A stretch of 64,000 nt of DNA from assembly GCA_963766795.1 (NCBI GenBank), contig CAVYBN010000007.1, positions 54,389 through 118,388 of the forward strand, given 5' to 3'. Below, piece by piece: positions 19,655 through 50,849 of this stretch. The notes beneath the pieces were generated by a model, which saw only the letters and a program-made list of their open reading frames with translations, did no database searches and was not told the origin of the DNA. Each line of letters begins with the position of its first letter. Position 1 is the stretch's first letter. The stretch comes from Candidatus Parcubacteria bacterium. GTDB taxonomy: Bacteria > Patescibacteriota > Minisyncoccia > Phycocordibacterales > PALSA-1337. The translations under genes and the position numbers were made by a program.

Positions 19655-19900
19655 ACTCCACCGCTTCCTCTCGGCGACAACAGTGTTCCGTCCGAGACCG
19701 CTCTGCCTTTCGACAGAATTGCGGCTCGGTCCGGAACACTGTTCTCGCCTGCGGAAGCGGTTCATGCAAGGCAGAAGCGGAACATGGGATGAAGCGACAT
19801 TGCGAAGGCGCGAAAGGCGCCGAGCACAAGAAATCGTCCCGATGGACATCGGGACGATTTCGGTCGCTGAACCCCATGTTCCGCTTCTGCCTCAAATTAT
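19655..19900. repeat. Composite Family-C palindromic elements. The left half is homologous to 7386-7500 (inside the giant gene). The right half is homologous to 22110-22262.
   Basis: gacaacagtgttccgtccgagaccgctctgcc...ggctcggtccggaacactgttctc (a hairpin), then ggcagaagcggaacatggg...cccatgttccgcttctgcc (a hairpin). Matching copies are listed in the call. Confidence 0.65.
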
Positions 19901-22104
19901 CACTTTTTCGCTGACTGGATCTGCTGGATGGCGGCATCAATCTGCGTCTTGTATTCGGGGTGGGCTTTGGCAAGCTGCTGTAGGGTCGCAATGGCTTGCT
20001 GATTCATGCCAGCCGCGTACTCGGCTTGCGCCAGTTGCGTGCCGGCAGTCAGGTCGGTCGAAGTGGCGGTGAATGACTTCTGGTATATTGCAATGGCTTT
20101 CGAGTAATCCTTGGCGATCATGTAGGCCTGAGCGATCTGCGGAGTTCCGAACAGCGCGGGATCGTCGCCGAAGAGCTGATGCGCCTTGGCTTCTTCCCCA
20201 TTCGCGACCAATGCCAGCACATAAGCAGACTTCACTTCACCGTCTGATGGATCCAGCGCATAGGCCTGCGCCAGAAGCGTCACGGCTTTGGCGATCTCGC
20301 CGCCATTCAGGTAAACATTGGAAAGCTCGAGATCGAGGGATTGCTTGGCCGGAGACAGCTGGTGGGCGGTTTCGAGCAGAGGCTCGGCTTGCGAGAATTG
20401 TCCGATCGAGGCCAGAAATGATCCGCCGAGCGTGTATATGCGCGCGTCCTTCCACGGCGTAGCCGCAATCTGATCCTGGATAGTCTGCATGGCCGAGCCG
20501 AAGAATGCCTGCTTGACCGGTCCGGGAACCTGCTGGCTGCCGATGACATTCCCGGCGCAGGACAGGAGCTGTTCGCGGATCTCTTGATCGGCTCCGTAAA
20601 CATTCACGGACAAGGCCGACTGGAAGAGCGAGGCGTCGGTGATCTGCGGACTGCCGCAGGCTTGAAGAGCCGCGATGAGGCGAGTGTTGGCTTGTATCGG
20701 ACGATAATCGAAGAAATAGAGCGTGAAGACCAAGGCGACGATGACGGCCGGAGCGGCGATGTATTCGACGGATTCGAGCGAGATCTGCTTGTTCCACCAC
20801 GACCACTGGATCGGCTTGCCTGCTCGGAATGAATCCGTGAATGCCAGCGCCGCGAAGAACGGCACATAGCTGGCCAAGTTGTCGAAGACGAAGATATTAT
20901 GCACGGCATAAGCTCCGATCAATCCGGTGAGCACGCTCTTCTCGGCTATCGAAAGCGACGACTTCCAGACGGCATAAAGGAACAAGATGTACAAAGAAAG
21001 ATACGCCAGCAAGCCGACTAGGCCGGAAGCCGTCAGCCAATCGAGATAGACGCTGTGCGCGCGGTCGAACCATTGCTCCTGATTCCACATGTGCGGATTG
21101 TAATAGGCGTTGAAGATGTAGTTGAAATTCTCCTGTCCCCAGCCGAGGATCGGACGGTGCTCCCAGCCGGTCAGCGCCATGTTCCAGATGTAGAGACGCG
21201 CGACTGATTCCGTGTCAGTGAGAGAGATCTTGGTCAAACGGCCGAGGATCTCGTTATTCTTGATGATCGGAGCGTTGCGAGCCGACCAGATGCCGATCCC
21301 AACTATTATGACGCCGATCAAGATGCCTCCGGCGACCTTACGGGAGCGCTTCGATTGGTCACGACCGATGATTGCGTAAATGAAAAGCCCCAACATCAAT
21401 CCGCCAACCCAACCAAGAATAGTGCCGCGAGTATTGGTCTCGAATAAGAGGAAGCTGAAGAAGACAGCCAGTATCGGATAGGCCCACATCAGGAATTTGG
21501 CGTTAGCTATTTTCTTGGCCTTGGCCGTGAAGAAGAGGTACGCGCAAAGGCCGGCATTCCAGAGCATGTACACGGCCATGTAAGCGGCATTGCCGAGCGA
21601 AGCATCGATGCGGCTCGAACCCTGGTGGATGGCCGCCCAGCCGAACAATTGCCATAGGCCGTAGACGCCGACGCACAGCGCCACGAATATCTCGAAGTTG
21701 AGCCAGCGGTGCCACATGCGCCTTCCCGTTTCGCCGGTGCCAAATATGCCGGTCGCCGCCATGAATAAGGCCCAGAGGTGGACGACGGTGATCCAGCCCT
21801 CCATGCGCTCGAAGTTCGACCACATACTGCGGAGCGGATTGACGCCGGCGAGATCTGCGACCAGCGCGACCAGAGCGAAGACGGTCACGCCGATCGTGAG
21901 CGGCGTCAATTTCGGACGATACTTGGCGTCGAGCGCGGAGAGGACCAGCCAAGCCGCGAAAGCGATCTCCACCAGGACGCGGAAATAGAAGGCCTTGCCG
22001 GTGATGAACGGGAAGAAGAACGAATTGGCGACGATCAGCGGGAATATCGGCACTAGGAACAGGGCCGCGATGGCGATGCCGCGCAGGGTTTTTTGTAGAT
22101 TCAT
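19900..22104 (-). CDS. O-antigen ligase (Wzy_C/WaaL/PglL) family polytopic membrane protein with a C-terminal TPR domain. The start is reassigned to MNLQK at 22104.
   Basis: About 12 predicted TM helices and a large loop with conserved Arg/His typical of the Wzy_C family. The C-terminal ~250 aa carry TPR-like repeats (AQAYALDP..., AQAYMIAKDYSKAIAIYQKS, AEYAAGMNQQAIATLQQL). The first 51 called codons lie inside the Family-C repeat and are not protein-like. Confidence 0.7.
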   Translation of the reverse strand: MNLQKTLRGIAIAALFLVPIFPLIVANSFFFPFITGKAFYFRVLVEIAFAAWLVLSALDAKYRPKLTPLTIGVTVFALVALVADLAGVNPLRSMWSNFERMEGWITVVHLWALFMAATGIFGTGETGRRMWHRWLNFEIFVALCVGVYGLWQLFGWAAIHQGSSRIDASLGNAAYMAVYMLWNAGLCAYLFFTAKAKKIANAKFLMWAYPILAVFFSFLLFETNTRGTILGWVGGLMLGLFIYAIIGRDQSKRSRKVAGGILIGVIIVGIGIWSARNAPIIKNNEILGRLTKISLTDTESVARLYIWNMALTGWEHRPILGWGQENFNYIFNAYYNPHMWNQEQWFDRAHSVYLDWLTASGLVGLLAYLSLYILFLYAVWKSSLSIAEKSVLTGLIGAYAVHNIFVFDNLASYVPFFAALAFTDSFRAGKPIQWSWWNKQISLESVEYIAAPAVIVALVFTLYFFDYRPIQANTRLIAALQACGSPQITDASLFQSALSVNVYGADQEIREQLLSCAGNVIGSQQVPGPVKQAFFGSAMQTIQDQIAATPWKDARIYTLGGSFLASIGQFSQAEPLLETAHQLSPAKQSLDLELSNVYLNGGEIAKAVTLLAQAYALDPSDGEVKSAYVLALVANGEEAKAHQLFGDDPALFGTPQIAQAYMIAKDYSKAIAIYQKSFTATSTDLTAGTQLAQAEYAAGMNQQAIATLQQLAKAHPEYKTQIDAAIQQIQSAKK

Positions 22105-22109: not shown

Positions 22110-22262
22110 GAATATAGCATGGGCATGAGGCAGAAGCAAAACATGGGGATTCGGCGACCGAAATCGCGCCCTGCTGGGCGCGTTTCTCGTGCTCGGCGCC
22201 TTCGCGCCTCCGCAATGCCGCCTCACCCCATGTTTTGCTTCTGCCTCCAAGCTTCAATTCCT
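22110..22262. repeat. Family-C palindromic element immediately upstream of the ligase-like gene
   Basis: ggcagaagcaaaacatgggg...gcgccgagcac...ccccatgttttgcttctgcc. Its partner is at 19760-19900 on the other side of the same gene. Confidence 0.65.
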
Positions 22263-23231
22263 GGACTTGCGCCTGGCGATCAACTTGTCCGCCAATCTCC
22301 TTATGGGCCGGATTTTCAATGCATACCTCACGATCACGGAATGATGAAAATCGAAAAGATTCATATGGTAATGGTAAAGCAGGACCCAGCGAGCATAGTT
22401 AATGTATTTACTGAAAACGAGCTTGCTGAACGCAAAGGAATATTCACTGGAACCGTTGATGTACGCCGCGCAGATCACGACACCCGAATCTACAGTGCCG
22501 ATCATGCTTTTACATCTCGCCAATGAAAAGAGATCCATGATGAAATCCTCGCCGTTGGTCTCCCTAAAATGGTCTTTAGAATAATGCGAGTCATTCGAGA
22601 TCACCGTACAGCCGATCTCGCGCAGCTTGTCCGACCATATCGCGTTCCATTCTCCGCTGTCGGACGCCAGATATACCCTGCCGCCGGCGTTATCAGCCAT
22701 GAATCCGCGCGCCTCCTCTTCGATGATCTCGTTGATCTTCTTCAACTGGCTCGGGACTATGGCGTACGGCGTTATACAGTCCGTGACTTTGGCGACGAAT
22801 TTATCCGTCATGCGTATGTGGATCCCGAGGCAATCGCTTCCGACCTCGAGCTTATCGATCTTTTGTATGATGCGAGAGATCGGTCTTACCCTTTTATAAC
22901 AGTTTACCCACAGCTTCAAGAATCCCTTATCCGATATGTTCAGGTCCTTCGGCTTGTTGCACCTGACGAATTTCAGGCTCGGTTTGATGCTCGGCTCAAA
23001 GCCGTAGTCTATGCCGTCTAAGGACACATCTTTTACTTCGTCATTCCACGGCTTAGCTTGCAACCCCTCTATCTCGCAGAATTCCAAGAATTCGAAGGGT
23101 CCGGCGTGCGACTTCTCTTCTTTTATGTAAAGAACGGGATCGTTCTTGAGCGTCGCTGCGGCTATGTAAAAAGTCAACAGCTTCAATCTGTCGCAGAAAC
23201 CGTTCCTGATTATCGAGAGGTCAGCGATCAT
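22254..23231 (-). CDS. Hypothetical protein (325 aa), possibly a GT11/GT23-type glycosyltransferase-like fold (weak HIRMTD motif)
   Basis: A long non-overlapping ORF with codon usage like its neighbours. Only a weak resemblance to the fucosyltransferase H.RRGD motif. Confidence 0.3.
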   Translation of the reverse strand: MIADLSIIRNGFCDRLKLLTFYIAAATLKNDPVLYIKEEKSHAGPFEFLEFCEIEGLQAKPWNDEVKDVSLDGIDYGFEPSIKPSLKFVRCNKPKDLNISDKGFLKLWVNCYKRVRPISRIIQKIDKLEVGSDCLGIHIRMTDKFVAKVTDCITPYAIVPSQLKKINEIIEEEARGFMADNAGGRVYLASDSGEWNAIWSDKLREIGCTVISNDSHYSKDHFRETNGEDFIMDLFSLARCKSMIGTVDSGVVICAAYINGSSEYSFAFSKLVFSKYINYARWVLLYHYHMNLFDFHHSVIVRYALKIRPIRRLADKLIARRKSRN

Positions 23232-23254: not shown

Positions 23255-23400
23255 TAAAAATCCCAAATCCCAGAAATCAAACTCCAGAAAAGCTTCAGAA
23301 TTCAAATTCCAAAAAGTCTGCTTTTTGATTATTGTAATTTGAATTTTGAGATTTCTCTGGAACTTGTGATTTGAATTTTGAGATTTTATTAGGAATTAGG
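23255..23400. repeat. Family-E AT-rich palindromic intergenic element (second copy)
   Basis: aaaatcccaaatcccagaaatcaaactccagaaaagcttcagaattcaaattccaaaaagtctgctttttgattattgtaatttgaattttgagatttctctggaacttgtgatttgaattttgag. Confidence 0.65.
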
Positions 23401-23428: not shown

Positions 23429-25363
23429 TTAATTCCTTATATCGTACATACGTGAGTAGTAAGTCTCCTTGTCCTTGAGCAATTCCACTGGTTTGCCCGA
23501 TTCAACAATCTTCCCGCCGTCAAGGACCAGGAGCTGGTCGCTGTGCGCCACGGTCGAGAGGCGATGCGCGATAATGACGATGGTCATCTTGCCTTTCAAT
23601 CCTTCGATCGCCTGCTGTATGTATTTCTCCGACTCGCCGTCGAGCGCGCTAGTAGCCTCATCGAGAAGCAGGATCTCCGGCTTGCGCGCCAAGGCGCGCG
23701 CGATGGCGATGCGCTGGCGCTGACCGCCGGAAAGCCGCGTTCCGCGCTCCCCGACTATGGTATCCAATCCCTCCGGCAATCCGGATACGAAATCTTTCAA
23801 ATAAGCTGCTTCGACGGCGCTTTCGATATCGGCGTCATTCACATTCGAATCATGGAATCGGATATTATTGCTAATCGTGTCGTTCAATAGGAATGCGTCT
23901 TGCGGCACATAAGCGATCGAATGGCGCCACTGCGAAAGATTCGTGACATTGATATCTTTGCCGTCGATCGTAATAATTCCAGCCGTAGGTTTTAACAATC
24001 TCAAAATAAGATCGAACACGGTCGTCTTCCCCGCACCGGACTTGCCGATGATCCCAATGGTATTCCCTTTCGGGACCGTGAATGAGAGCCCTTTGAGCAC
24101 ATATTCGCCGAGCGTTTGCTCTCCAGAACCACTGTTTGCTTTCGTCCAATTTTCTTCAGCTTGCCTCCCTTTAATCTGTTCCTTTTCCGCGTACGCGAAC
24201 GACACGCCTTCAAAACGAAGCTCCTTTTTGAAACTGAAAGGTGTTCCGTCAGTCCCGCGCGCGGGTTCGGCGTAGCGCGCGGCCTGATCGCGGTATTCTA
24301 GCACGCCTTGGACGAACGGCACCGCTCCGCTGATATTCTGGGCATATTGTTGGAGACTTTGGATATAATCGAACATCTTTTGGATTAGATATACCACCGC
24401 CGCCAATGCGCCCAGATTGTAGGCCGTGCGATAGTACGCGAAAGCCACCACCAGCGAGATGAAGACGATGCCTATCGGCTGGATGAACGACACCGTCAAG
24501 TTCTGGATCATGTACTGGCGCATCTGAAGCCTCCGCAACGCTTCAAAATTTCTGGAGGAAAAATCAATGAAAGGCTTCTCATTGCCCGCCGCCTTGATAC
24601 ACTTCATGCCGCCTATGCTCTCGTTGACCTGATGTGAGATCTCCTTATTCAGGCGCTCGGTTTCGGCCGAGTACCGCCGCACCTTGAAAATGAACGGTTT
24701 GAAGACGAAGAAGATGGCCCCTCCAAGGATGAGCGTCATCACGGTGACGGTCTTGGAAATATTCAAGGCCACGATAAGATACATCAGGAAGCCTCCGATT
24801 ATTCCCACGGACGAAGTGACGGTATCCAAAAGGACGCCGCTCTGCGAGACGTCGGTCATGATGACCGTCTCCAGATGCCCCAGCTTCTGCTTCGAAAGAT
24901 AAGGCCAATCGGCCGAGAGCGTCTCGCGGTAGAGCTGGTCCATGGTCTTACGCTGATATCCCGTCCGAATCAGATTACGGATATAATTCAAATAACAGGT
25001 GAGACCGGCGCTGCCGGCGAACATCAGGCAGATGAAGACGAGCAATGATGGCAATGTGAGCGGGATGTGCGCGATCGCGAAAAGGTTCCTGATGAAGTTC
25101 GTGATGGAGTCGGTCCCGATGCGATCAGTGCCGTTGACAAAGAAGGAGAAGAGCGGGATGAGCGCATTCGCCCCGACCGCTTGAAAGAGACCGCTTAAGA
25201 CGCCGAGGACTGAAAGCAAGACGATCTGCTTCTTGTACGCACCGAAGGCGCGCCTGGCCAGCTTTAGAGCGGCCAAGAGACGAGATGCGCCGGATAGGAA
25301 CGGATTACGGTTCGACATGGCCTTATTTATACGCCAAAAACGGTCGCGTGTCCACAAAAGCAA
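23429..25363 (-). CDS. ABC transporter, fused permease/ATP-binding exporter (MsbA-like type I exporter)
   Basis: Six N-terminal TM helices, then an NBD with Walker A GKSGAGKTT, signature LSGGQRQRIAIARAL and Walker B ILLLDEATSALD. A ~35-aa insertion lies in the NBD N-terminus. Confidence 0.9.
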   Translation of the reverse strand: MLLWTRDRFWRINKAMSNRNPFLSGASRLLAALKLARRAFGAYKKQIVLLSVLGVLSGLFQAVGANALIPLFSFFVNGTDRIGTDSITNFIRNLFAIAHIPLTLPSLLVFICLMFAGSAGLTCYLNYIRNLIRTGYQRKTMDQLYRETLSADWPYLSKQKLGHLETVIMTDVSQSGVLLDTVTSSVGIIGGFLMYLIVALNISKTVTVMTLILGGAIFFVFKPFIFKVRRYSAETERLNKEISHQVNESIGGMKCIKAAGNEKPFIDFSSRNFEALRRLQMRQYMIQNLTVSFIQPIGIVFISLVVAFAYYRTAYNLGALAAVVYLIQKMFDYIQSLQQYAQNISGAVPFVQGVLEYRDQAARYAEPARGTDGTPFSFKKELRFEGVSFAYAEKEQIKGRQAEENWTKANSGSGEQTLGEYVLKGLSFTVPKGNTIGIIGKSGAGKTTVFDLILRLLKPTAGIITIDGKDINVTNLSQWRHSIAYVPQDAFLLNDTISNNIRFHDSNVNDADIESAVEAAYLKDFVSGLPEGLDTIVGERGTRLSGGQRQRIAIARALARKPEILLLDEATSALDGESEKYIQQAIEGLKGKMTIVIIAHRLSTVAHSDQLLVLDGGKIVESGKPVELLKDKETYYSRMYDIRN

Positions 25364-25453: not shown

Positions 25454-26386
25454 ATGAAGAAAGAAAGAAAAACAGTCGTTTTCGCCAAAGACGCCCTCAA
25501 TAAGATGATCGGGGGCGGCTTTGATCTTTTGATCGGAAAGAATATGCCGTCAGGCCATATGTGGCCGCCGACGAATTATAAAAAGCGGAGTCCTTTACGC
25601 TATCGATTCATCGAGAGGCCGCTTGCCGAGCACGGAGTCTTCATTCCGCAGAGATCTCCCAAAGACGGGAGTCAGTTCAAGACATTCAACGACGAACACA
25701 GGATATTGGATGGATTGCTCGATTCCTTGTCTGTACCGATCATCCGGTATTATGTCGACATCGGAGCCGCCGATGGGATCGACATGTCAAATACCTATCT
25801 CCTGGCTGCAAACGGATGGCACGGGCTTTCTATCGAAATGGACGCGAACGCATTCGCGGCATTGTCAGTCACATATCAATGTCTTCCGAATATCGACCTG
25901 GTCCGATCAGGGGTGACTCCTGAAAATATAGCGAGCTTGCTCACATATGCCGAGGTTCCCTCGGACTTCGGCGTATTGAGCCTCGATATCGATGGATACG
26001 ATTTCTATGTCTTGCAAGAGATCTTGAAGGCGCATCGTCCGCAGGTGATCATAGCCGAGATCAATCCATCGATCCCCGCGAGCGTATGCGTCTCTTTGAA
26101 ATATTCGGGATCTTTCTTCTGGACAGGACAGACCTTTGTCGGGATGAGCGTGGCCATGCTCAAAGGGCTGGCCGACGAGCATGATTACGGCATAGTCGAG
26201 GTAAACGGATGCGCGGCATTTTTGATGCCAAACGAGATCATCCGGGGGCATACGAGACTGAGCTTGGAAGAGATGGACGCAAAGATAGTATCAACGAACC
26301 CTGATATCGACCCCGTGCTGCGCAAGGAATTGAACGCGTCTCCGTCAAAGACGCTCGACTATGTTTCGAATGTCCTGTTCAAATAA
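25454..26386 (+). CDS. FkbM-family methyltransferase-like protein
   Basis: YYVDIGAADGIDMSNTYLLAANGWHGLSIE ... LSLDIDGYDFYVLQEIL matches the Methyltransf_21 pattern (DIGAN.G, ..D.EG.E..VL). Confidence 0.5.
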   Translation: MKKERKTVVFAKDALNKMIGGGFDLLIGKNMPSGHMWPPTNYKKRSPLRYRFIERPLAEHGVFIPQRSPKDGSQFKTFNDEHRILDGLLDSLSVPIIRYYVDIGAADGIDMSNTYLLAANGWHGLSIEMDANAFAALSVTYQCLPNIDLVRSGVTPENIASLLTYAEVPSDFGVLSLDIDGYDFYVLQEILKAHRPQVIIAEINPSIPASVCVSLKYSGSFFWTGQTFVGMSVAMLKGLADEHDYGIVEVNGCAAFLMPNEIIRGHTRLSLEEMDAKIVSTNPDIDPVLRKELNASPSKTLDYVSNVLFK

Positions 26387-26420: not shown

Positions 26421-27296
26421 ATGATCACGACGAAACTTAAAAAAGTGATAGAAAACAGGAGAGGCTCGCGCAATCGCGTCGACATCGCGCTTGTTCGGAT
26501 CAAGGACTCTCTGTGGCTTTTTTCGCACAAGACATTGCCATGGATGTCGGATCAGGCCGCGCGGGTGATGCTGCCGTTCTGTGGTAAGAAGCTGCTGCAA
26601 CAGCTCACTCCTTTCGCAGTGACCGGATTCCAAGACAAGATACGGCTCGGCAATCCGTCTGACGGAGGTTATGTAATACCAAAGGATATATTGCCGCTTA
26701 TTCAGTCAGTCTACACATATGGAGTCGAGAATGACGTAAGTTTTGAAGAAGACCTGATAAAGATGGCCTCTGTTCCAGTCAGACTGTATGATCATACCAT
26801 CGATGCTTTGCCGGTAAATAATAAGAATTTCTTTTTCAAGAAGCAAGGGATCGCAAGGAACAAACATGGAGCATTCGACACTTTCAGAAATCACGTGATC
26901 GAGAACGGCGATACGGACAAACGGATCCTCTTAAAGATCGACATAGAGGGACATGAATGGGACGTAATCTCTGACATAATAGATACCGAATATAAGAATA
27001 TAGTAGCGATCATATTAGAGATGCACGGATTTGATCGGTACGCGTACACGCGAAAGTACATCCGTGTCCTGAAAAAGATCAATTCCAGATTCACGCTAGT
27101 CCATATCCATGGGAATAATACATGCGGAGTTATCAAGGTTTCCGGTAAAAAGATACCTATCTTATGCGAATTGACTCTGATCAACAACCGGCTTGTCAGC
27201 GAAAGGAAGGCTCTTAATGAACAGCTTCCTTCTCGCGTAGATCGTCCGAATCAACCGCACTTAGAGGATATAGTCTTGGATTTCTGGAAGAAATAG
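26421..27296 (+). CDS. FkbM-family methyltransferase-like protein (paralogue)
   Basis: LGNPSDGGYVIPKD ... KIDIEGHEWDVISDII. Confidence 0.5.
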   Translation: MITTKLKKVIENRRGSRNRVDIALVRIKDSLWLFSHKTLPWMSDQAARVMLPFCGKKLLQQLTPFAVTGFQDKIRLGNPSDGGYVIPKDILPLIQSVYTYGVENDVSFEEDLIKMASVPVRLYDHTIDALPVNNKNFFFKKQGIARNKHGAFDTFRNHVIENGDTDKRILLKIDIEGHEWDVISDIIDTEYKNIVAIILEMHGFDRYAYTRKYIRVLKKINSRFTLVHIHGNNTCGVIKVSGKKIPILCELTLINNRLVSERKALNEQLPSRVDRPNQPHLEDIVLDFWKK

Positions 27297-27991: not shown

Positions 27992-28011
27992 AAGTCATAT
28001 ACTGTCGGCAT

Positions 28012-38810: not shown

Positions 38811-38860
38811 GCAGGAGGTGATTGCAAAAAACAGCCCTTGTGATAGAGTCCCTTTCAGAT

Positions 38861-39325
38861 ATGAATAAAAATAAAATAGCCCTCATCCAAGGCGCATTTG
38901 ACCTTCTCAATTATGGTCACGTCCGCGCGCTCGGCGCAGCCAGACACGTTGCCGCGCATGTCATAGTCGCCCTGAATGGCGACGGGCTCATCAATAACAA
39001 CGGCCGTTGGAGCTACAAGGACAGCAGGCCTGTCCTGCCATGGTGGCAAAGGAAAGCCATACTAATGTCGCTCCGATCCGTCGATCGGGTCGTTCCGGCT
39101 CACACATTCAGCCCTCTCGAGCTGTTGAAGAGATACAAGGCCGACGTATACGTCGTAGGCCTGGAATGGAAGCACACGAAGCAAGCCGAGATCGAATATA
39201 TGATGGAATCAGGAGGGAGGATCATCTGGACGCCGCGATACAAAGGCGTCATCTCGACAACCCATATAAAGCTCATGCTCCTCGAGGAGGCTCAAAGGGC
39301 GAGCGTCAAAGCCGCTTCACGATAG
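38861..39325 (+). CDS. Cytidylyltransferase-like nucleotidyltransferase (RfaE-domain-II / TagD-like)
   Basis: IALIQGAFDLLNYGHVRAL contains the (H/Y)xGH nucleotidyltransferase motif. 155 aa. The start is set at MNKNK. Confidence 0.7.
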   Translation: MNKNKIALIQGAFDLLNYGHVRALGAARHVAAHVIVALNGDGLINNNGRWSYKDSRPVLPWWQRKAILMSLRSVDRVVPAHTFSPLELLKRYKADVYVVGLEWKHTKQAEIEYMMESGGRIIWTPRYKGVISTTHIKLMLLEEAQRASVKAASR

Positions 39326-43252: not shown

Positions 43253-43517
43253 TCGAGTTCCCGGATTGAACGGGACTGAAACTGTTGAACTGAACATTCT
43301 TATAGCGGTTCTTGATTGAGTTAATCGCTGATTCGAATTCAACCGGCTTCGCTTCGAATGCCAGCGAATAGAACCATTTGAAACCGCCGGCGAAATATTC
43401 CTTGCCATCGGTGAAGACAGGAATAGCGGAATGGTCGCCATTAACCGGCGCGACGCCATAAGCGTTTTTCAGATAATCGAGCGTCTTCTGCTCTTTAATG
43501 AGGCCAGTGATATGCAT
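43245..43517 (-). CDS. Small protein (90 aa) overlapping the FemAB::GtrA start by 8 nt (ATGATTAA). It may be the detached N-terminal lobe of the FemAB-like domain.
   Basis: Protein-like translation (MHITGLIKEQKTLDYLKNAYGVAPVNGDHSAIPVFTDGKEYFAGGFKWFYSLAFEAK...). Its frame differs by one from the downstream gene. Confidence 0.4.
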   Translation of the reverse strand: MHITGLIKEQKTLDYLKNAYGVAPVNGDHSAIPVFTDGKEYFAGGFKWFYSLAFEAKPVEFESAINSIKNRYKNVQFNSFSPVQSGNSND

Positions 43518-43518: not shown

Positions 43519-44379
43519 TTATTTCTTCCTTCGAAGCAGTCTTTTAATGGCTAGGTATCGGCGTGATTTGGCTACTTTGCACTTGAATTCAGCCATTGAA
43601 GTAGTCGCAGAAATCGCCATGCGCGGCAATTCCAAAGGATTCACCTGCGAACCATTCGACTGCGGCTCGATGATCTTTTCTTTAACAGTGACCGCCGATT
43701 GGAATCGAAGCGAGGAAACGATCTCAATCGTCTCATTTGAGTACTTGCCATACGGATACGCAAAACAAACAACAGGTTTTCCAGTGATGCCTTCGATCAT
43801 TTGTTTCGATTGCGATATGTCTTTCAACGCGTCTTCCCTGTTCATGTCTCTCAAAATACCGTGCGAATGCCCGTGCGGCATGATCTCGACCAAGCCTCCG
43901 TTCGAAAGCTCTCTGATTTGGTCGATGTCCATGACAGACAGAGAAGAAGCAACGATTGGAGTCGAGCTGCCCGCATTGAGATTGACGGCATCGGCGCTGG
44001 CGGTAGCTGGCAAATCGCCTTTTTTCAAGGTGAATTCTTTTCCGATGTATGCCGTTGAAATAAATATCGTGGCTGGAGTCGAATGCTTTTTGAGTATCGG
44101 CAAGGCTTCATTGAAATTATCCTCATATCCATCATCGAATGTGACTGCGACGGCATTCACTGGCAAAGTACCTGATCTCAATCGTGAGGCGAATTCGGAG
44201 AGCCTCAAGCATTCGCGGCCTGACGATTTCAAGAATGACATTTGTTTTTCAAACTCTTCCGGAGTGACTGTGAATTGCGCGCGATTGTGGCCTATCGAGT
44301 GGTACATCAAGATCACGGGCGCCGGATCGCCGGCTGGCGCGAAAACTGAAATTATTTTCCAGAAGATATTTTTAATCAT
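43519..44379 (-). CDS. Polysaccharide deacetylase (CE4, NodB homology domain)
   Basis: VAVTFDDGYEDNF (motif 1, TFDDG), MPHGHSHGIL (His motif), CFAYPYG. Confidence 0.85.
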   Translation of the reverse strand: MIKNIFWKIISVFAPAGDPAPVILMYHSIGHNRAQFTVTPEEFEKQMSFLKSSGRECLRLSEFASRLRSGTLPVNAVAVTFDDGYEDNFNEALPILKKHSTPATIFISTAYIGKEFTLKKGDLPATASADAVNLNAGSSTPIVASSLSVMDIDQIRELSNGGLVEIMPHGHSHGILRDMNREDALKDISQSKQMIEGITGKPVVCFAYPYGKYSNETIEIVSSLRFQSAVTVKEKIIEPQSNGSQVNPLELPRMAISATTSMAEFKCKVAKSRRYLAIKRLLRRKK

Positions 44380-44439: not shown

Positions 44440-45084
44440 TTAGCCTGCAATCGGCTCCAGTGTGAAGAAATGATGGTACTGATTCTCGAACGGCACGAAT
44501 TCGCGACGGATGATGAAATGCTGTTTAATAGCTTTTCTGATCGTAGCCGGAGAATATCCCTTCTTGCCGATCTCCCAATAGTGCTGGCCATTCCAAGAAT
44601 GTTGCCGAGGAAATGGAGCTTTAAAAGCGAACTTGATCTCCGGAACAAACGGTAATTTGAGCAGGAATCTAAAAGCCGGACCGAAATGCGGCAAGCTGAT
44701 GACTGCCCCATTCTTAGCCACGCGGGCGATCTCTGCCAATGCATGCGGGAATTTCTCGAACGGGAGATGTTCGAGGACTTCGAAGACGCAAACGACATCG
44801 AAAGACTTATCTGGAAAAGGCAGGGCTTCGGCGCTACCGACCACGTCCGGATTTAAATCAGCGGCGATATCCAAGCTCGTATATTCGATATCCGTATTAT
44901 TCTTTATGAAACTGCAAAAAACGCGGTCGCCGACGCCGATCTCCAGGATCGAGCGCGGCTGGAAAGCCATGGCCTCATCGAGCTGATGGAAATAGCTCGC
45001 CCAGCGCTCCGGCCGCGCGTAGGCCTTGAGATCATAAGCTTTCTTGTCGACCTGCTTGCTTTGCACGATTTTGGGGAATCGCAT
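44440..45084 (-). CDS. Class-I SAM-dependent methyltransferase
   Basis: ILEIGVGDRVF ... FDVVCVFEVLEHLP. Confidence 0.75.
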   Translation of the reverse strand: MRFPKIVQSKQVDKKAYDLKAYARPERWASYFHQLDEAMAFQPRSILEIGVGDRVFCSFIKNNTDIEYTSLDIAADLNPDVVGSAEALPFPDKSFDVVCVFEVLEHLPFEKFPHALAEIARVAKNGAVISLPHFGPAFRFLLKLPFVPEIKFAFKAPFPRQHSWNGQHYWEIGKKGYSPATIRKAIKQHFIIRREFVPFENQYHHFFTLEPIAG

Positions 45085-45088: not shown

Positions 45089-46318
45089 TTATCCTAGCAT
45101 GACCTCGCTCAACTTTCTTACGACCGTCCTGACGTCGAAATCAGCTCGGGCTTTGTCTTTCAGATAAGCAGCGATTGTCGTGCGATCAGTCTGCCACAAG
45201 GCCTTGATCTTGTCTGACAAATCCAACGGATCTTGGAATTTGAAGATGAGCTTATCCGCGTACTGGCCAAAAACAGCCTTAAATGCCTCATTTGAAACTA
45301 ACGGCAGACAGCCGGCGGCCATGCCTTCCAATACGACTTTATCGATGCCACCGGTCGGCGTCAGATTTATATTAAAATCATTGCCAAGATAATAAGCCGC
45401 TATCTCTGATTGCGGCACGGCGTGATTGAAATGCACCCTGTCTTGCAATCCCTTAGACTTGACCGATTCCTTGAGCTCATTGAAATATGAATCATCATCA
45501 GCCGTCACCGGCGAACCGACGATATCGCAATGAACTTCAGTTCTTTCGCGTCTCAACAGGCCGACTGCTTCAATCAGCGTCTCCAAATTCTTGATGCGCG
45601 TGATTCGGCCGATGCTCACTAAGCGCAAATTTTGATGAGAATGAGAGAGGGGCGCGTCATGCCCATGAAGGACATTGCCAACAGAATGAATGCCAGGCGA
45701 ATCAGAAAGGGGGAACAGTCCTGAATGGGCATGACGCGCCCCTCGAGCAAAGCTTTCAACGTCGATCCCGTGGCCGATAATATGGAGTTTTTTAGTCTTC
45801 AGCCCGAAGCTCTCCGGAGCGGCCGTGAATATCTCGTCGGAAAGGCAAGCGGCGAGCCTCAATTGGAGATGCACGGCGCGATGCGTGTACCACAGCCCGA
45901 TCTTCTTATTCCACGCTTTCCATAATAGGCCGCCAAGGATGACGTATATCTGATTCATGTGCACGAAGACGGCGTCGTAATTATTTCGCTCGCGGCAAAT
46001 GATCGAGATGAAGCGTGCAGCGTATCGAAGCCGGTCACTGAAGCTTGAAGCTAGAAGCTGGGAGCTAGGAGCTTGAAAAGTATCAGCTTCAAATTTTGAT
46101 TTTTGACTTGCAATTTTGCCTTTTGCCTTTTGCCTTTTGACTTTTTCCTTGCCGAGCGACAGCACGCGCACATTTGCCGGCAATTCGTGCTTACCTTCTT
46201 CAAGGCATACTACGATGACCGAATCGAAATGCTTGGTGAATTCTATGATCCAGCCATGAAAAAAACCGAGGATAGGGTCGTCGCGATCGACTTTTTGAGT
46301 GCAGATTAAGAGACGCAT
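45089..46318 (-). CDS. GT4-family glycosyltransferase carrying two in-frame repeat insertions (a Family-D element and an agctgggagct-type element)
   Basis: GGIDKVVLEGMAAGCLPLVSN. The inserted peptides are QKAKGKIASQKSKFEADTFQAPSSQLLASSFS (46040-46150) and a segment spanning 45646-45743. Confidence 0.8.
   Translation of the reverse strand: MRLLICTQKVDRDDPILGFFHGWIIEFTKHFDSVIVVCLEEGKHELPANVRVLSLGKEKVKRQKAKGKIASQKSKFEADTFQAPSSQLLASSFSDRLRYAARFISIICRERNNYDAVFVHMNQIYVILGGLLWKAWNKKIGLWYTHRAVHLQLRLAACLSDEIFTAAPESFGLKTKKLHIIGHGIDVESFARGARHAHSGLFPLSDSPGIHSVGNVLHGHDAPLSHSHQNLRLVSIGRITRIKNLETLIEAVGLLRRERTEVHCDIVGSPVTADDDSYFNELKESVKSKGLQDRVHFNHAVPQSEIAAYYLGNDFNINLTPTGGIDKVVLEGMAAGCLPLVSNEAFKAVFGQYADKLIFKFQDPLDLSDKIKALWQTDRTTIAAYLKDKARADFDVRTVVRKLSEVMLG
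45646..45743. repeat. Family-D MITE-like element with 18-bp terminal inverted repeats, in frame inside a GT4 gene
   Basis: gaggggcgcgtcatgccc ... gggcatgacgcgcccctc. The internal sequence aligns with 56977-57076. Confidence 0.75.
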
Positions 46319-46321: not shown

Positions 46322-47188
46322 TTATTTCTTTGATCGGCGTGGGATTTCTGCGCCGTAAACGCCCTTTAATAGGTCGAGATCCTTCTTGGACGATTTCAAT
46401 AATTCCACATTCTTGTCGCGAATGGCTTCAAGAACCATGAGGCCTGCCTTATCTTTCATCCTCTCTCCAAAGAATCGCGTGAAGGCCTCGAAGTCTTTGA
46501 TGAAACAGTGGCCGCCAGCGCCGCGACCGCTCTTATGGACCGGATTCAGATAACGGTGCGAGGAGATCATTGGATCGGCACGGAAGGAGGCCATGAGCAT
46601 ATCCCAATCCATAGCATGCCTATGAGCGATGTCATAGAGCATGTTCGAGAAGACGACTGAAATGTATCCGTGGATGTTGTGCGCATATTTGATGAACTCT
46701 GCTTCGTCAGACGAACAAATGAGACTGTACGGGGCATGCGGCAGAATTGATAGCACGCGTTTGGCAGCGACGCGATGAGCCGCATCATTCTTCGGCATGC
46801 CGACGATATTACGATCGGGATTGGCGGCGTCTTGCGCGGCAGTCCTTTCTGACAAGAATTCCGGCGAATCAAGGACGATGCGATCCGGGTAGGCCTTTTG
46901 GATCGCGCGAGTCGTGCCCATGATGAGCGTGGATTTGATGACAGCGATCTTGCCTTTTCCCACGAGCTTGACGGCACTTTTGACAATGCTCGAATCAAAG
47001 CCCTTGGGTGTGGTCGGAGTCGGTACAGCGATGAATACCACGTCACAGCCTGAAATCAAGCGTTTATTGCCCTTATAGGCTTTTTCCAGGCCATATCTGA
47101 CGGTTTTATAGCCGCGTTTTTCGAAATCGTCGGCATAATTCCTGCCGATCCAGCCTTGGCCGATGAAGCCGATCGTTGGTTTTTTCAT
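46322..47188 (-). CDS. UDP-glucose/GDP-mannose dehydrogenase-family protein, short form (288 aa, NAD-binding plus central domain only)
   Basis: IGFIGQGWIG Rossmann motif, VVFIAVPTP and SPEFLSE resemble UGDH family motifs. It lacks about 120 C-terminal residues of canonical UGDH. Confidence 0.55.
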   Translation of the reverse strand: MKKPTIGFIGQGWIGRNYADDFEKRGYKTVRYGLEKAYKGNKRLISGCDVVFIAVPTPTTPKGFDSSIVKSAVKLVGKGKIAVIKSTLIMGTTRAIQKAYPDRIVLDSPEFLSERTAAQDAANPDRNIVGMPKNDAAHRVAAKRVLSILPHAPYSLICSSDEAEFIKYAHNIHGYISVVFSNMLYDIAHRHAMDWDMLMASFRADPMISSHRYLNPVHKSGRGAGGHCFIKDFEAFTRFFGERMKDKAGLMVLEAIRDKNVELLKSSKKDLDLLKGVYGAEIPRRSKK

Positions 47189-47283: not shown

Positions 47284-48492
47284 TCAATGTTGCATGCCGA
47301 TCGCCTCAGTAATGGCTTCAGCTACCCTTTCTGATTCCGGCTCAACAATGATGGCTCCGACTTCACCGGCGACTCCGACATCCGTTGAAACGATCTTGCA
47401 TCCGGCGGCTTGAGCTTCGACTAATGACATTCCATAGCCTTCGAATAAGGAAACATTTAAGAACAAGTCGGCGGTCTTGTAATACGAGATCAGCGTGGTT
47501 TTGTCGGCCCAATCTTCGAAGACGACCGACTCACCGGCTTGTGGCTCTCCGCCAGCTGGCGGACCACCATTTGAGCCACGATCATCGCCAGTTCCAATCA
47601 ATCCCAATTGTTTTGCGATCCCTCTGAGCTTCGCCTCCTGCGAACCGCGGCCGACAATGACAAGCCCGGCCTTCGGAATCTTCTTAACGACTTCCTTGAA
47701 AGCCTCGATCGCCATGCCGATGTTCTTCTCTGGTTCCAACCGCGAAGCCATCAAAATGATCTTTTTGAATTGCGGATATTTCTTGCGCAGATCAGCGTTT
47801 GAATCGATTGGTATACTCTTAATCGAATCAGTGTCGACAGCGATCGGCCTGACTGCGATCTTAGTCGAATCGATCCCGACGGTTTCAACCAGATATTTTT
47901 TGATCCTATCTGAAACGACGCGGATAGAATCAGCTTTGCGCACATACGACAGCGCCAGAGCTTTGCGGATCTTATTGGTTAGATTGAACGGATAATAAGG
48001 GCTGCCGATGTCCTCATGGATCTGGATCTCCAATGGCAAGTTGAATCGCTTCTTTAGAGAAACTCCGGCCATGGCCGTCAACGAAGCGTCTTGGCAAGTC
48101 ATCTCCGTGATGCCGCGCTTCTCGATGATGAATCTGCCGAGGCTGATCGCGTCGAAAGGATACAATGATTTGAATCGAGAGCGCGTGGAGTATGCCCAGC
48201 AGTTGGGAGAAATAACGGATTCAGAATTTATGATTTTCAAACTGTCACCCCCGCGAAGGCGGGGGTCCAGTGTATTACCACTGACATAATCGTTGTGACC
48301 CTGGATTCCCGCTTTCGCGGGAATGACACAAAAATTTCGTCTTGCAAAGACGATGATGTGAACTTCACCCCAATCTTTGGCATATGCGATCTGTCGCGCA
48401 CGCACAGAACTGCCCTCTTCAAAGATAGACCGATCAGTCGAGATCATCAGCAATCTTCGATTGGTCTTGGTTGTGGACTGATTGGGAGGCAT
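47284..48492 (-). CDS. GT4-family glycosyltransferase with an in-frame Family-A insertion
   Basis: LFEGYGMSLVEAQAAGCKIVSTDVG. Insertion VIPAKAGIQGHNDYVSGNTLDPRLRGGDS. Confidence 0.85.
   Translation of the reverse strand: MPPNQSTTKTNRRLLMISTDRSIFEEGSSVRARQIAYAKDWGEVHIIVFARRNFCVIPAKAGIQGHNDYVSGNTLDPRLRGGDSLKIINSESVISPNCWAYSTRSRFKSLYPFDAISLGRFIIEKRGITEMTCQDASLTAMAGVSLKKRFNLPLEIQIHEDIGSPYYPFNLTNKIRKALALSYVRKADSIRVVSDRIKKYLVETVGIDSTKIAVRPIAVDTDSIKSIPIDSNADLRKKYPQFKKIILMASRLEPEKNIGMAIEAFKEVVKKIPKAGLVIVGRGSQEAKLRGIAKQLGLIGTGDDRGSNGGPPAGGEPQAGESVVFEDWADKTTLISYYKTADLFLNVSLFEGYGMSLVEAQAAGCKIVSTDVGVAGEVGAIIVEPESERVAEAITEAIGMQH
48244..48327. repeat. Family-A palindromic element, in frame in the GT4 gene
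   Basis: gtcacccccgcgaaggcgggggtccag ... ctggattcccgctttcgcgggaatgac. Confidence 0.85.
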
Positions 48493-48621: not shown

Positions 48622-49674
48622 TTAACGCTCCATGGCGTCTTTCTTGCGTTGCTTTCGAACCCGCTTCCAGACACTGACGATCTCGCTCCCTATCTCTTCC
48701 CAAGTGTGGACGAACTTGAATGCACGGACATTATCGGCTTGGGCGGCGCGATTGGCTGGATCTGACAGCCAGACGATCTTGTCAGAAATATCCTTCGGAT
48801 CCTGCGGGTCAACGAATACGGCGCATTCACGGACTCGATCGGCGATGCCGGTCTCCTTCGTCAAGATGAAAGGCGTGCCGACGCGGATGGCATCAAAGAT
48901 GAGATTCGGGCTGATATCGCCGAGCGAAGCCAAGATGACCGCGTACGAGCGGTGGATCTTCTCGACGAAGCTGTCATAGACGGCCTTGCCGCAATCGAGC
49001 TCGATGTCGTCAAGGCCGCGGCGCCCGAGCGTGGCGCGAGCGTCCGCGAAGGCATCCTTCAGGAGGTCGACGTTCTTCCATTTGAGCGGACGGGTGCCGG
49101 CCACGAACATGCGGTTCTCCGGCTCGACTGGCTTTTCGCGCGGACCGCAGAAGTTCTCGACGAGAAAGCTTTTCCTGTGATCGAGCCCGTAAGCCTTCTC
49201 GAATATGCCCATCTGCCAGTCTGTGCTGAAGATGACCGCGGCCGCCTTGCGGAGAGCCGCGCCTCCCCATTTGAAGACAGGCTTCTCTTTGCCGGACAGC
49301 TTGTCCATCCTCGTCGCATATAAGTCCTTAAATAAGACGAGATCGCCTGTCCGTTCGACGTAAGTCTCCCACAGAAAATCTCCGCCGGTGCGGATGATAT
49401 ATCGCTTGCCCATCATCCTGCAGGCCCACATCGTCGGTACGGCCGCGCTCCAGGTGTCTAGGACGAGGATGAGATCGGCGTTCCAGCCTTTGCGCATGAC
49501 CTTGTTCATGTAAAGGACGTGGCGGATGCCGGGCGGCGCGGCGCGCTCCCAGCGGAAAGCCGCGACTTTGACCTGATGGCCCTGCTTGCGCCAGGTCTCA
49601 TAGAGATTGCGGGCATACTGGGCGGGGCCGCCGATGTCGGGCGGATATATGCCGGAGGCGATTAAAATCTTCAT
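48622..49674 (-). CDS. GT4-like glycosyltransferase
   Basis: The N-terminus ILIASGIYPPDIGGPAQYARNL is typical of the GT4 N-domain. The C-terminal motif is weaker. Confidence 0.65.
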   Translation of the reverse strand: MKILIASGIYPPDIGGPAQYARNLYETWRKQGHQVKVAAFRWERAAPPGIRHVLYMNKVMRKGWNADLILVLDTWSAAVPTMWACRMMGKRYIIRTGGDFLWETYVERTGDLVLFKDLYATRMDKLSGKEKPVFKWGGAALRKAAAVIFSTDWQMGIFEKAYGLDHRKSFLVENFCGPREKPVEPENRMFVAGTRPLKWKNVDLLKDAFADARATLGRRGLDDIELDCGKAVYDSFVEKIHRSYAVILASLGDISPNLIFDAIRVGTPFILTKETGIADRVRECAVFVDPQDPKDISDKIVWLSDPANRAAQADNVRAFKFVHTWEEIGSEIVSVWKRVRKQRKKDAMER

Positions 49675-50849
49675 TCTTTCAGTGTAGCAGAATCGAAGAC
49701 AGCTTTCATCTTATTCGCGATCGCCTTCCACTGGTACTTTTCCTCGACCATCTTCCTCGCATTTTTGACGATATATTCGCGCGACTCTTTGTCTTTCATG
49801 AGCTTCTCGACTTTCTGCGCGATCGAGCGCGTGTTGTCGACTTCGCAGAAGAGACCGGTCTCGCCGTCTTTCAAGAAATCCGGGATGCCGCCGACCGGCG
49901 TCGCGATGACGGGAATGCCAGCCGCCATAGCTTCCAAGAATGAGTTTCCGAGGCCTTCGGAGCGCGACGGGCGGATGAAGATGTCGGATGCTTTCAAATA
50001 AGCAGGCAGATTCGAGTGCGAAACAAAACCAATGAAGAGAACACGGTCAGATTCTTTCGAATTCAAACCGAGCTTGATCGCCTGCGCTTTCAAATCATTT
50101 TCAAGAGCGCCTGCGCCAAGGACAATCAATTTAATATTCGCCGGCAAGTATTGAAGCGCGCTCACGATATCGTCGACGGCGTTCTTGTGAACCAATCGCG
50201 AAGCTGTCACCAAGAAGACATCGTCGGCTTTTTTGCCAAGCTCCTCTTTTAAGGCCATGGCAATGGCCGTATTCTCGCTGGAAAATAGCCTGTAGTCGAC
50301 GCCATTCGGGATTATTTCAATTGGACAGGTCGCACCCATTTGTTTCGACCAATCGGCCAAAAAAGACGATATGGCCGTGATATGGTCAGCGCTCTTGAAG
50401 ATCTTGGCGAAGAGGAATTTGAATATGCCTTCGCGCCTCTCGAAATTATCGCCTTCTTGAATGGTCAGAACCATCGGCACTTTTGGATGGACGAGCTTGA
50501 ATAGGTACGCGGCAAAACCGGCATAGCTGGCCATGATCGGCCAGACCGCGTCGTACGGCTGTTTGCGATTCAAGCTCAAAGCCTTGAAGAAAGCCGCGAA
50601 TGGAAAAAGCAGTTTTGACAACGGCAATATCCTCGAGCTCTTTGTGTTGTGGCCGAACCACGGCGCGCCGACGCGGTAGACATTCACATTCCCGACGCGT
50701 TCAAAAACTGGCGCTTGCTTGCGCAGAGTGACCATGTCGAAAGCGCATTCACTGGGATCGATGCGGTCGGTGATCTCCTTCACGGCCACTTCCGCCCCGC
50801 CGACGTAGCGAGGGTAATAGGCCAGCGAGAATATGAGGATGCGGCGCAT
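49671..50849 (-). CDS. GT4-family glycosyltransferase
   Basis: FIRPSRSEGLGNSFLEAMAAGIPVIATPVGGIPDFL. Confidence 0.85.
   Translation of the reverse strand: MRRILIFSLAYYPRYVGGAEVAVKEITDRIDPSECAFDMVTLRKQAPVFERVGNVNVYRVGAPWFGHNTKSSRILPLSKLLFPFAAFFKALSLNRKQPYDAVWPIMASYAGFAAYLFKLVHPKVPMVLTIQEGDNFERREGIFKFLFAKIFKSADHITAISSFLADWSKQMGATCPIEIIPNGVDYRLFSSENTAIAMALKEELGKKADDVFLVTASRLVHKNAVDDIVSALQYLPANIKLIVLGAGALENDLKAQAIKLGLNSKESDRVLFIGFVSHSNLPAYLKASDIFIRPSRSEGLGNSFLEAMAAGIPVIATPVGGIPDFLKDGETGLFCEVDNTRSIAQKVEKLMKDKESREYIVKNARKMVEEKYQWKAIANKMKAVFDSATLKE

Follow-up and report, generated by a model that had tools for sequence, protein, structure and literature searches.

The Wzy_C family, to which both the WaaL-type O-antigen ligases and the PglL-type O-oligosaccharyltransferases belong, is known for low overall similarity among its members. 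An Arg/Arg/His triad in periplasmic loops is common to WaaL (R215/R288/H338 in Escherichia coli) and PglL (R224/R298/H349), and a PglL_A motif flanking Wzy_C defines the PglL type (PMC3643930). In the S-layer glycosylation (slg) clusters, WsaB and WsfB are predicted S-layer O-oligosaccharyltransferases, glycans are exported by ATP-binding cassette (ABC) transporters and chains carry methyl caps; WsfB and PglL possess a C-terminal TPR domain thought to mediate protein contacts, while in WsaA/WsaB the TPR unit is an adjacent protein (PMC2943079). TacL, a Wzy_C protein of the monoderm Streptococcus pneumoniae, is required for lipoteichoic acid (LTA) synthesis and was proposed to ligate chains linked to undecaprenyl pyrophosphate (Und-PP) onto a glycolipid anchor (PMC5727136). 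Here, a Wzy_C ligase and the glycan-biosynthesis island adjoining it are analysed in a stretch of 64,000 nucleotides (hereafter the window) from Candidatus Parcubacteria bacterium (assembly GCA_963766795.1, contig CAVYBN010000007.1, positions 54,389 to 118,388). The main outcome is that one highly conserved ligase, located at a fixed chromosomal site, accompanies an O-antigen-like hypervariable locus in hundreds of species.

The likely start of the ligase is the ATG at 22104 rather than the TTG at 22257, because homologues begin at MxLKK, and the resulting protein has 734 aa. Gene families were assigned throughout from Pfam, NCBIfam and PDB searches, Pfam calls being judged against gathering cut-offs. 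Wzy_C (PF04932) was matched with 79.5 bits (cut-off 31.7) at aa 263-420 of the open reading frame (ORF), the loop alone scoring 47.8 bits, and TPR families were matched in Pfam at about aa 535-730, the TPR domain spanning about aa 490-731 in the structural model; a preliminary description of this DNA, which had proposed a Wzy_C protein with TPR, was thus right on this point. The AlphaFold model, built with 36 homologues (pLDDT 83.8, pTM 0.78), displays the predicted 12-transmembrane (TM) fold of WaaL with a large extracytoplasmic loop between TM9 and TM10, and its best structural match is WaaL itself (7TPJ), at 15% identity. The ligase has 13 TM helices, the last of which (443-483) is additional with respect to WaaL, and positively charged loops are found at 196-201 and 247-251. 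Given this topology and the positive-inside loops, the catalytic loop (275-351) and the TPR domain are predicted to lie on the same, outer face of the membrane.

The distribution of invariant residues is strongly asymmetric, with 53 of 129 positions invariant in the outward loops vs 3 of 43 in the inward ones. Conserved motifs include FPFITGK, SNFERMEGW, GNAAYMAVY, TxTRG, GWGQENFNY, EQWFDRAH(350) and FVFDN; two invariant cysteines, C483 and C516, are situated in the outward linker, and R226, R289, R303, R348 and H350 are invariant in predicted outward loops. These last residues are at most candidate counterparts of the WaaL triad, since the sequence profile does not reach the solved WaaL. Such conservation of the outer face is unusual for a family of this kind and speaks in favour of a single conserved acceptor for many donors.

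More than 4700 relatives of the ligase are present in databases; the best 120 are full-length and 51-91% identical, their named sources being metagenome-assembled genomes (MAGs) of Patescibacteria, Paceibacterota, Parcubacteria and Taylorbacteria. Counting one genome per species, relatives occur in at least 552 species-level genomes, and those listed are all Patescibacteria or unclassified MAGs. Across 80 species loci the orthologs are 42-66% identical over their full length. In five annotated relatives the same map was obtained, consisting of a variable glycan cluster, the exporter, the ligase, murB, secA, usually a NUDIX gene, obg and often gatB; the ligase-murB-secA order of the window was seen in the related loci L001, L002, L004 and L005. 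MurB is encoded within 5 kb downstream of the ligase in 48 of 62 species loci, and at least one recognizable glycan gene lies upstream of it in 48 of 58. The content of the island is far less constant, since the 10 kb upstream in 81 loci contained no counterpart for 10 of its 27 non-ligase genes, and counterparts for most others in at most 7 loci, vs a ligase that is present in 80 of the same 81. On its far side the variable region is bounded in the window by a TraG/VirD4-like ATPase and a DUF4015 putative glycoside hydrolase; the same pair (L005:1-3632) closes the variable part of L005, which extends over only about 6 kb, and a TraG-like gene is also found upstream in L043. The TraG/VirD4-like ATPase has 426 aa in the window vs 666 aa in L005, and may be truncated at its N-terminus. 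Judged from gene content and order, this pattern is that of an O-antigen-type locus, with conserved flanks and ligase and with exchangeable content and export mode, and on the same genomic evidence a conserved ligase with a hypervariable glycan locus characterizes a whole class (Paceibacteria) of the Candidate Phyla Radiation (CPR). The ligase is not an island-specific "head", as had been thought at first; it is a class-wide gene at a fixed chromosomal site.

Upstream of the ligase and on the same strand, the island encodes a fused ABC half-transporter in which a type-IV exporter transmembrane domain (TMD) is joined to a nucleotide-binding domain (NBD), and whose nearest NCBIfam models are HepA, MsbA and PglK, all under their cut-offs. 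An exporter lies within 5 kb upstream of the ligase in at least 31 of 58 related loci (Wzm/Wzt in 24, Wzx in 3, other or fused ABC in 4); these counts are lower bounds, and each annotated or listed locus shows one exporter type, Wzm/Wzt, Wzx or fused ABC. The exporter of the window is not of the Wzm/Wzt kind (ABC2_membrane plus ATPase, often with Wzt_C) that fills this position in the 24 loci. Its assignment to glycan export is based on its MsbA/HepA/PglK architecture, on its occupation of the slot held by Wzm/Wzt or Wzx in relatives, and on the homologous fused ABC proteins that adjoin the ligase in L021, L026, L061 and L071, and is putative. In Pfam scans the island showed neither Wzx (Polysacc_synt) nor a second Wzy_C protein, which agrees with the absence of Wzx and Wzy noted previously, and the fused ABC supports the ABC-dependent export route proposed with it.

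Glycan assembly extends throughout the contiguous 28-gene block of about 31 kb (19900-50849), as judged from the ORF listing and Pfam scans, and its functional tie to a ligase of the WaaL/PglL superfamily, like the coordinates and gene content first given for it, was upheld. It comprises at least 11 glycosyltransferases (GTs) and 7 methyltransferases, three of FkbM type (two barely over the cut-off) and four class-I S-adenosylmethionine (SAM)-dependent. The inventory drawn up in the preliminary description was accurate for the fused ABC exporter, the two GT2 enzymes, the GT11 protein with its hallmark motifs (86 bits), the GT47-like protein, the methyltransferases, the CE4 deacetylase, and the cytidylyltransferase-like, UGDH-like and GNAT/FemAB-like::GtrA proteins; it was too generous in counting at least nine GT4 enzymes, of which Pfam backs six, and its GT9-like protein is faint and under cut-off. 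From the families encoded, it can be proposed that a glycan would be assembled on a polyprenyl carrier at the cytoplasmic face by the six GT4, GT2, GT11 and GT47-like enzymes together with several family-less ORFs, and would be decorated by up to seven methyltransferases. From its position, the MsbA/PglK-type fused ABC would then carry the glycan across the membrane, and the ligase, whose fold, topology and conservation pattern were computed and whose chemistry we infer, would transfer it en bloc. That the system assembles, exports and ligates a glycan in this way to a conserved acceptor other than lipopolysaccharide (LPS) is well supported and probable. LPS is an unlikely destination, the genome being of the Patescibacteria/Paceibacteria, a lineage whose few described members are monoderm (PMC8871954); Pfam scans of the 64-kb window revealed peptidoglycan genes and no lpx, lpt or bam genes. 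The earlier view that the glycan is not destined for LPS was supported to this extent.

This organization may be compared with that of the slg clusters of Geobacillus stearothermophilus and Paenibacillus alvei, which share with it a monoderm host, a lipid-carrier glycan built by LPS-like modules and ABC export. Methylation caps the chains there, and seven methyltransferases are encoded here; relatives of the present locus use Wzm/Wzt with a Wzt_C domain, as the slg clusters do. WsfB resembles the ligase, by description only, in its combination of Wzy_C with a C-terminal TPR domain, which is modelled outside the membrane in our protein. In contrast to the slg clusters, the island has a fused MsbA/PglK-type exporter instead of Wzm/Wzt, lacks a WbaP-type primer, rml genes and an adjacent S-layer gene, and is served by a class-wide ligase fixed beside murB-secA and not by a cluster-specific one. 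With the PglL enzymes of Neisseria and Acinetobacter the ligase has in common the Wzy_C domain; PglL and WaaL possess the Arg/Arg/His triad, and the ligase has invariant Arg and His residues in predicted outward loops. PglL is likewise described as having a C-terminal TPR (PMC2943079), and its relaxed donor specificity and en bloc transfer of Und-PP-linked glycans are the behaviour proposed here. The Campylobacter flippase PglK is among the nearest NCBIfam models of the fused ABC. The differences from PglL lie in the missing PglL_A match, in the lack of an adjacent pilin or target gene, in the diderm hosts of PglL vs the monoderm CPR, and in an island that is far larger (27 non-ligase genes) and methyltransferase-rich. 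As in O-antigen systems, a conserved ligase serves interchangeable hypervariable loci of Wzx or ABC type between conserved flanks, but it differs from WaaL in the absence of a sequence-profile match, in its 13th TM helix and outward TPR domain, and in that the Paceibacteria lineage is not known to make a lipid A-core, so that the defining acceptor of WaaL is missing. TacL is also a monoderm Wzy_C protein, proposed to act outside the membrane and to move an Und-PP-linked polymer to an acceptor other than LPS; it consists of 397 aa with Wzy_C only, and its donor, teichoic acid, is invariant and not hypervariable (PMC5727136).

Taken together, these likenesses suggest a Paceibacteria counterpart of the O-antigen and S-layer-glycan loci, in which variable glycans would be transferred en bloc by a conserved ligase to a conserved non-LPS surface acceptor, for which a protein is favoured; we hold this reading with about even confidence. 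The balance is tipped toward protein by the TPR domain, which is predicted to be outward and is conserved, and by analogy with WsfB and PglL the enzyme may act as a general O-oligosaccharyltransferase whose outward TPR domain would recognize one or more secreted or surface proteins. A protein acceptor is in this sense the leading hypothesis, with the chances evenly poised. A broader version, put forward tentatively and with somewhat less than even expectation, is a general protein O-glycosylation throughout the Paceibacteria, and conceivably in other CPR too, in which one conserved WaaL-fold oligosaccharyltransferase would recognize Sec-exported pili, S-layer proteins or giant adhesins through its outward TPR domain and would furnish them with strain-specific methylated and fucosylated glycans encoded at a hypervariable fixed-site locus.

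Several observations weigh against the favoured reading. Sequence and profile searches of the PDB with the full-length ligase returned only TPR chains, and a profile of the membrane domain returned nothing relevant, the solved WaaL being retrieved in neither case; NCBIfam gave no ligase family at its cut-off for this protein, and in sequence the family is distant from all characterized ones. PglL_A (PF15864) was not among the Pfam matches of the full-length ligase at E<=0.01, and the PglL identity first suggested for it was not sustained. The TPR domain is not specific evidence for a protein acceptor because TPR domains also scaffold polysaccharide export, and the weak TPR matches of the ligase, below NCBIfam cut-offs, are to PgaA and PrsT. 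No priming phosphoglycosyltransferase was recognizable in the island or in the 10-kb flanks of its relatives. The ligase neighbourhood offers no identified acceptor, its neighbours being murB/secA and glycan genes with no S-layer or pilin gene linked to them. Finally, TacL shows that monoderm Wzy_C ligases plausibly serve lipid acceptors (PMC5727136).

As regards candidate acceptors, a search of all window frames with the pilin motif G-[FMYW]-[TS]-[LI]-[ILVM]-E gave only one chance match, inside a GT4 gene, and the Bac_transf and SLH families are absent from the island and its flanks according to Pfam. The two Ser/Thr-rich proteins described previously do exist: a giant ORF (3216-9014, minus strand, 1932 aa) contains 21% Ser+Thr and its out-of-frame continuation (2-3466, minus strand) 31%, and the tail of an HTH-TM protein contains 37.7% Ser+Thr+Ala and not more than 40% as had been stated. 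Nothing but proximity speaks for their designation as acceptors, and 10-17 kb with the genes gatB, obg, secA and murB separate them from the ligase, the giant ORF being at 11 kb. Giant surface-protein genes were considered as consistent syntenic partners of the ligase and rejected, as 16 of 45 loci encode any protein of 600 aa or more, SecA excepted, in the 10 kb downstream, at scattered positions.

En bloc transfer had been proposed to go to surface proteins and not to lipid. The transfer to a non-LPS acceptor stands, and the preference for protein over glycolipid does not follow, given the precedent of TacL (PMC5727136). A TacL-like lipoglycan ligase would imply the same export and en bloc transfer with a membrane glycolipid as acceptor, giving an LTA- or lipoglycan-like product standing in for the O-antigen. 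If the acceptor were a small lipid, the extreme conservation of the outer face across the class would be accounted for, no protein acceptor is linked to the ligase, and WaaL, its nearest solved fold, is a lipid-acceptor enzyme. On the other hand, TacL has no equivalent of the 260-aa outward TPR domain that occurs family-wide here and includes invariant positions. De novo lipid synthesis is generally assumed to be missing in CPR bacteria, and on that account a dedicated, conserved glycolipid anchor is less to be expected. On balance, a glycolipid acceptor is less likely than a protein, yet it is a serious rival.

A second route to the cell surface is suggested by a GT2 synthase fused to a polytopic domain, the latter a GT-C fold by its model, which matches the GT-C enzymes AftA (23.1), Pmt4 (20.9), AglB (20.6), STT3B, ALG12, PglB and ArnT with moderate model quality (pLDDT 73). 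No match was obtained in the PDB with a profile of the isolated GT-C domain; the family has no Pfam model and is represented full-length or stand-alone in only about six database clusters. The island thus encodes a DPMS/GtrB/ArnC-type GT2 synthase, a GtrA-family flippase domain and a GT-C fold transferase, the three components of the Gtr, Arn and Pmt systems, and its CE4 deacetylase occupies the position of an ArnD analogue. Unlike in those systems, synthase and GT-C transferase are fused in one 768-aa protein and GtrA is fused to a GNAT/FemAB-like domain. In L086 a Methyltransf_11 gene, CE4, GNAT::GtrA and GT2::GT-C are contiguous in that order, and the same part of the island holds these genes in the window. 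Such an Arn/Gtr-like module would make a polyprenyl-phosphate-linked (N-acetyl)hexosamine and flip it, perhaps after de-N-acetylation, for addition on the outer side of the membrane, and its target could be the glycan or, in a PMT-like manner, Ser/Thr-rich proteins. Accordingly with its presence in 1 of the 81 loci, it is regarded as an accessory decoration and not as the core system; from a polyprenyl-phosphate donor, the GT2::GT-C, GNAT::GtrA and CE4 proteins would add single, possibly de-N-acetylated sugars.

If Ser/Thr-rich surface proteins were themselves the targets of GT2::GT-C, receiving PMT-like single sugars from a GtrA-flipped polyprenyl-phosphate donor, the ligase would serve some other acceptor. 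PMT_2 is weakly matched in 3 of 5 family members, the N-terminal domain of the fusion is a DPMS/ArnC/GtrB-type synthase, and a GtrA domain belongs to the same module, which is kept in L086; in actinobacteria, Ppm1/Pmt O-mannosylate Sec substrates in Ser/Thr-rich regions. This proposal is unlikely, in view of the moderate quality of the model, of the restriction of the module to that single related locus, for which it cannot be a general system, and of the CE4 linkage, which points to an amino sugar being added to a glycan as in the Arn system.

A role of the enzyme as wall-glycopolymer ligase, with peptidoglycan, lipid II or some other wall polymer receiving the glycan, could be read from its adjacency to murB in those 48 of 62 species and from the murB, murC and mraY-like genes of the window, which indicate that a wall is made. 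No Wzy_C enzyme is known for such an attachment, in the scheme proposed for pneumococci it is LCP phosphotransferases that link teichoic acid to peptidoglycan (PMC5727136), and secA synteny is equally conserved, so that both adjacencies may reflect ancestral gene order. A likeness of the GWGQENFNY loop to the repeats of a lysozyme chain (PDB 5i8l), considered as a sign of peptidoglycan binding, was rejected as not significant (E=0.23), Pfam giving only Wzy_C in that region. A wall acceptor is therefore very improbable. A role as Wzy-type polymerase of the adjacent locus is very unlikely: although Pfam Wzy_C also covers some polymerases and the Wzx loci show no separate Wzy within 10 kb, polymerases are specific for their repeat unit and co-vary with the locus, whereas here a single ortholog is found beside loci whose contents are unrelated, some of them ABC-dependent and without need of a polymerase, and its best structural match is a ligase.

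The CPR/Patescibacteria form a large and mostly uncultured share of the bacteria, with tiny genomes; they are thought to live attached to hosts, and their surface chemistry is almost unknown. Since the complete chromosome of a relative measures 876 kb, an island of about 31 kb would occupy some 3-4% of a genome of that size, which is much for a reduced one to invest. The conserved ligase gives CPR surface variation a testable handle, with one enzyme to express, one locus for strain typing and one acceptor question. Should the acceptor be a protein, the ligase would represent a new family of O-oligosaccharyltransferases with apparently relaxed donor specificity and of interest for glycoengineering; should protein O-glycosylation be lineage-wide, it would be a functional equivalent of the O-antigen in the absence of an outer membrane and would probably help to determine how these episymbionts recognize hosts and evade phages. 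Full-text literature searches retrieved no paper describing this ligase family or locus architecture in CPR, and nothing relevant on CPR with O-antigen ligase or glycosylation. The features of the island, its flanks and the repeats of the window are collected in Table 1.

Table 1. Features of the glycan island, its conserved flanks and the palindromic repeat (positions in the window).
Feature	Positions	Strand	Evidence or remark
secA, conserved flank downstream of the ligase, co-directional	14943-18032	-	Pfam
murB, conserved flank downstream of the ligase, co-directional	18097-19302	-	Pfam
Wzy_C + TPR ligase, 734 aa	19900-22104	-	Pfam
325-aa ORF between exporter and ligase, without family	22254-23231	-	Pfam, NCBIfam, PDB: zero matches; HIRMTD = HxRxxD pattern, cf. 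fucosyltransferase-superfamily motif I
Fused ABC exporter (TMD+NBD), MsbA/HepA/PglK type, putative lipid-linked-glycan flippase/exporter	23429-25363	-	ABC_membrane + ABC_tran
FkbM-type methyltransferase, weak	25454-26386	+	Methyltransf_21 24.2 bits vs cut-off 22.7
FkbM-type methyltransferase, weak	26421-27296	+	Methyltransf_21 23.6 bits
Class-I SAM methyltransferase, CmcI-like	27314-27991	+	Methyltransf_24
GT47/exostosin-like glycosyltransferase	27925-28998	+	PDB 8q8i/8avq/8asa (exostosin GT47 domain, A075L), E=5e-23, aa 129-340
274-aa ORF without family	28991-29815	+	Pfam, NCBIfam, PDB: zero matches
GT2 glycosyltransferase	29840-31051	+	Glycos_transf_2 112 bits
Possible GT9-like (GT-B) protein, faint	31054-31821	+	Glyco_transf_9 16.9 bits, under cut-off; heptosyltransferase II E=1.4e-4
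GT11 alpha-1,2-fucosyltransferase family	31873-32706	+	Glyco_transf_11 86.2 bits; motifs HVRRGDF, SDDPKW, SNSTFSWW
317-aa ORF without family, recurrent GT11 partner	32732-33685	+	Counterparts in 14/81 related loci
Class-I SAM methyltransferase	33682-34644	+	Methyltransf_23/11
281-aa ORF, faint DXD sugar-binding GT signal	34617-35462	+	Gly_transf_sug E=0.093; 56% identical copy in L086
FkbM methyltransferase	35466-36365	-	Methyltransf_21 62.8 bits
Polyprenyl-phosphate-sugar synthase (GT2) fused to predicted GT-C fold glycosyltransferase, 768 aa	36362-38668	-	
Cytidylyl/adenylyl-transferase-like, RfaE domain II/TagD-like	38822-39325	+	CTP_transf_like; rfaE_dom_II E=7e-23, g3p_cytidyltrns E=5e-15, both under cut-offs
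GT4 glycosyltransferase	39388-40572	-	Glycos_transf_1 86.6 bits
Class-I SAM methyltransferase	40569-41138	-	Methyltransf_23/11
GT4 glycosyltransferase	41123-42190	-	Glycos_transf_1 37.5 bits
GNAT/FemAB-like domain fused to GtrA-type polyprenyl-phosphate-sugar flippase domain	42203-43459	-	GtrA_DPMS_TM 86.8 bits, Acetyltransf_6; 60% identical copy in L086
CE4 polysaccharide deacetylase	43519-44379	-	Polysacc_deac_1 97.4 bits
Class-I SAM methyltransferase	44440-45084	-	Methyltransf_11
GT4 glycosyltransferase	45089-46318	-	Glycos_transf_1 61.9 bits
NDP-sugar dehydrogenase-like (UGDH-like), 288 aa, without C-terminal domain	46322-47188	-	UDPG_MGDP_dh_N + central domain only; NDP-sugDHase 108 bits vs cut-off 189.8
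GT4 glycosyltransferase with in-frame palindromic-element insertion at aa 55-85	47284-48492	-	Glycos_transf_1 78.3 bits; repeat copy 48239-48329
GT4 glycosyltransferase, weak	48622-49674	-	Glyco_transf_4 28.8 bits
GT4 glycosyltransferase, final island gene	49671-50849	-	Glycos_transf_1 141 bits
TraG/VirD4-like ATPase, far flank of the variable region	51751-53031	-	Pfam
DUF4015 putative glycoside hydrolase, far flank of the variable region	54695-55978	-	Pfam
Palindromic repeat copies	8872-8962, 9975-10065, 12038-12134, 15550-15640, 17293-17383, 18944-19037, 48239-48329, 51601-51668, 57402-57498, 62764-62854, 63348-63438		

Four ORFs of the island (22254-23231, 28991-29815, 32732-33685 and 34617-35462) remained family-less after Pfam at E<=10 and PDB searches, and the first of them has a counterpart in 0 of the 81 related loci. 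GT11 counterparts were found in 16 of these loci, and GT11 recurs next to an unannotated gene of 306-332 aa (31873-33685 in the window, L001:205-2000, L004:2700-4602), which probably represents an uncharacterized glycosyltransferase or accessory family. The only solved relatives of the GT47-like protein are the three near-identical PDB chains given in Table 1; A075L is a chlorovirus glycosyltransferase, and this match would be an unexpected link between a CPR bacterium and a giant virus.

Cell wall genes surround the sole PNPT-family gene of the window, which is mraY-like (59415-60542) and lies about 800 bp upstream of a murC-like gene; it was considered as a WecA-type primer and rejected (MraY 163 bits vs WecA 34). 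An arginyltransferase/ATE_C-like ORF of GNAT fold (60644-61327) is placed between the mraY-like and murC-like genes, and an ATP-grasp ORF (57006-58490) about 900 bp upstream of mraY, with one family-less ORF between them; both may be enzymes that modify the peptidoglycan stem peptide or cross-bridge.

The giant ORF ends in apparently out-of-frame sequence and the 1155-aa frame that continues it runs off the left edge of the window, so that the gene probably exceeds 3000 aa and is interrupted near 3216-3466 by a frameshift, which may be real or due to misassembly. It contains long internal direct repeats (families D4-D10, 76-95% identical). Short repeats of the TCTTGAATC/TTTGAATTT type, intergenic as well as intragenic, occur at 7661-7714, 9929-9963, 15092-15146, 19343-19404, 23318-23357 and 61315-61349, and contribute NPKSEIQ-like peptides to the giant protein, to the HTH-TM protein and, at aa 965-984, to SecA. 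A palindromic repeat of about 91-97 nt (TGTCATTCCCGCGAAAGCGGGAATCCAG...CTGGATTCCCGCTTTCGCGGGAATGACA) is present in at least 11 copies in the window. It resembles the Rickettsia palindromic elements, and several copies are inserted in-frame within genes, essential ones included (SecA, MurB, GatB and one GT4 of the island), where they give rise to extra peptides, for example VIPAKAGIQG...LDSRFRGNDK, which the L001 orthologues lack.

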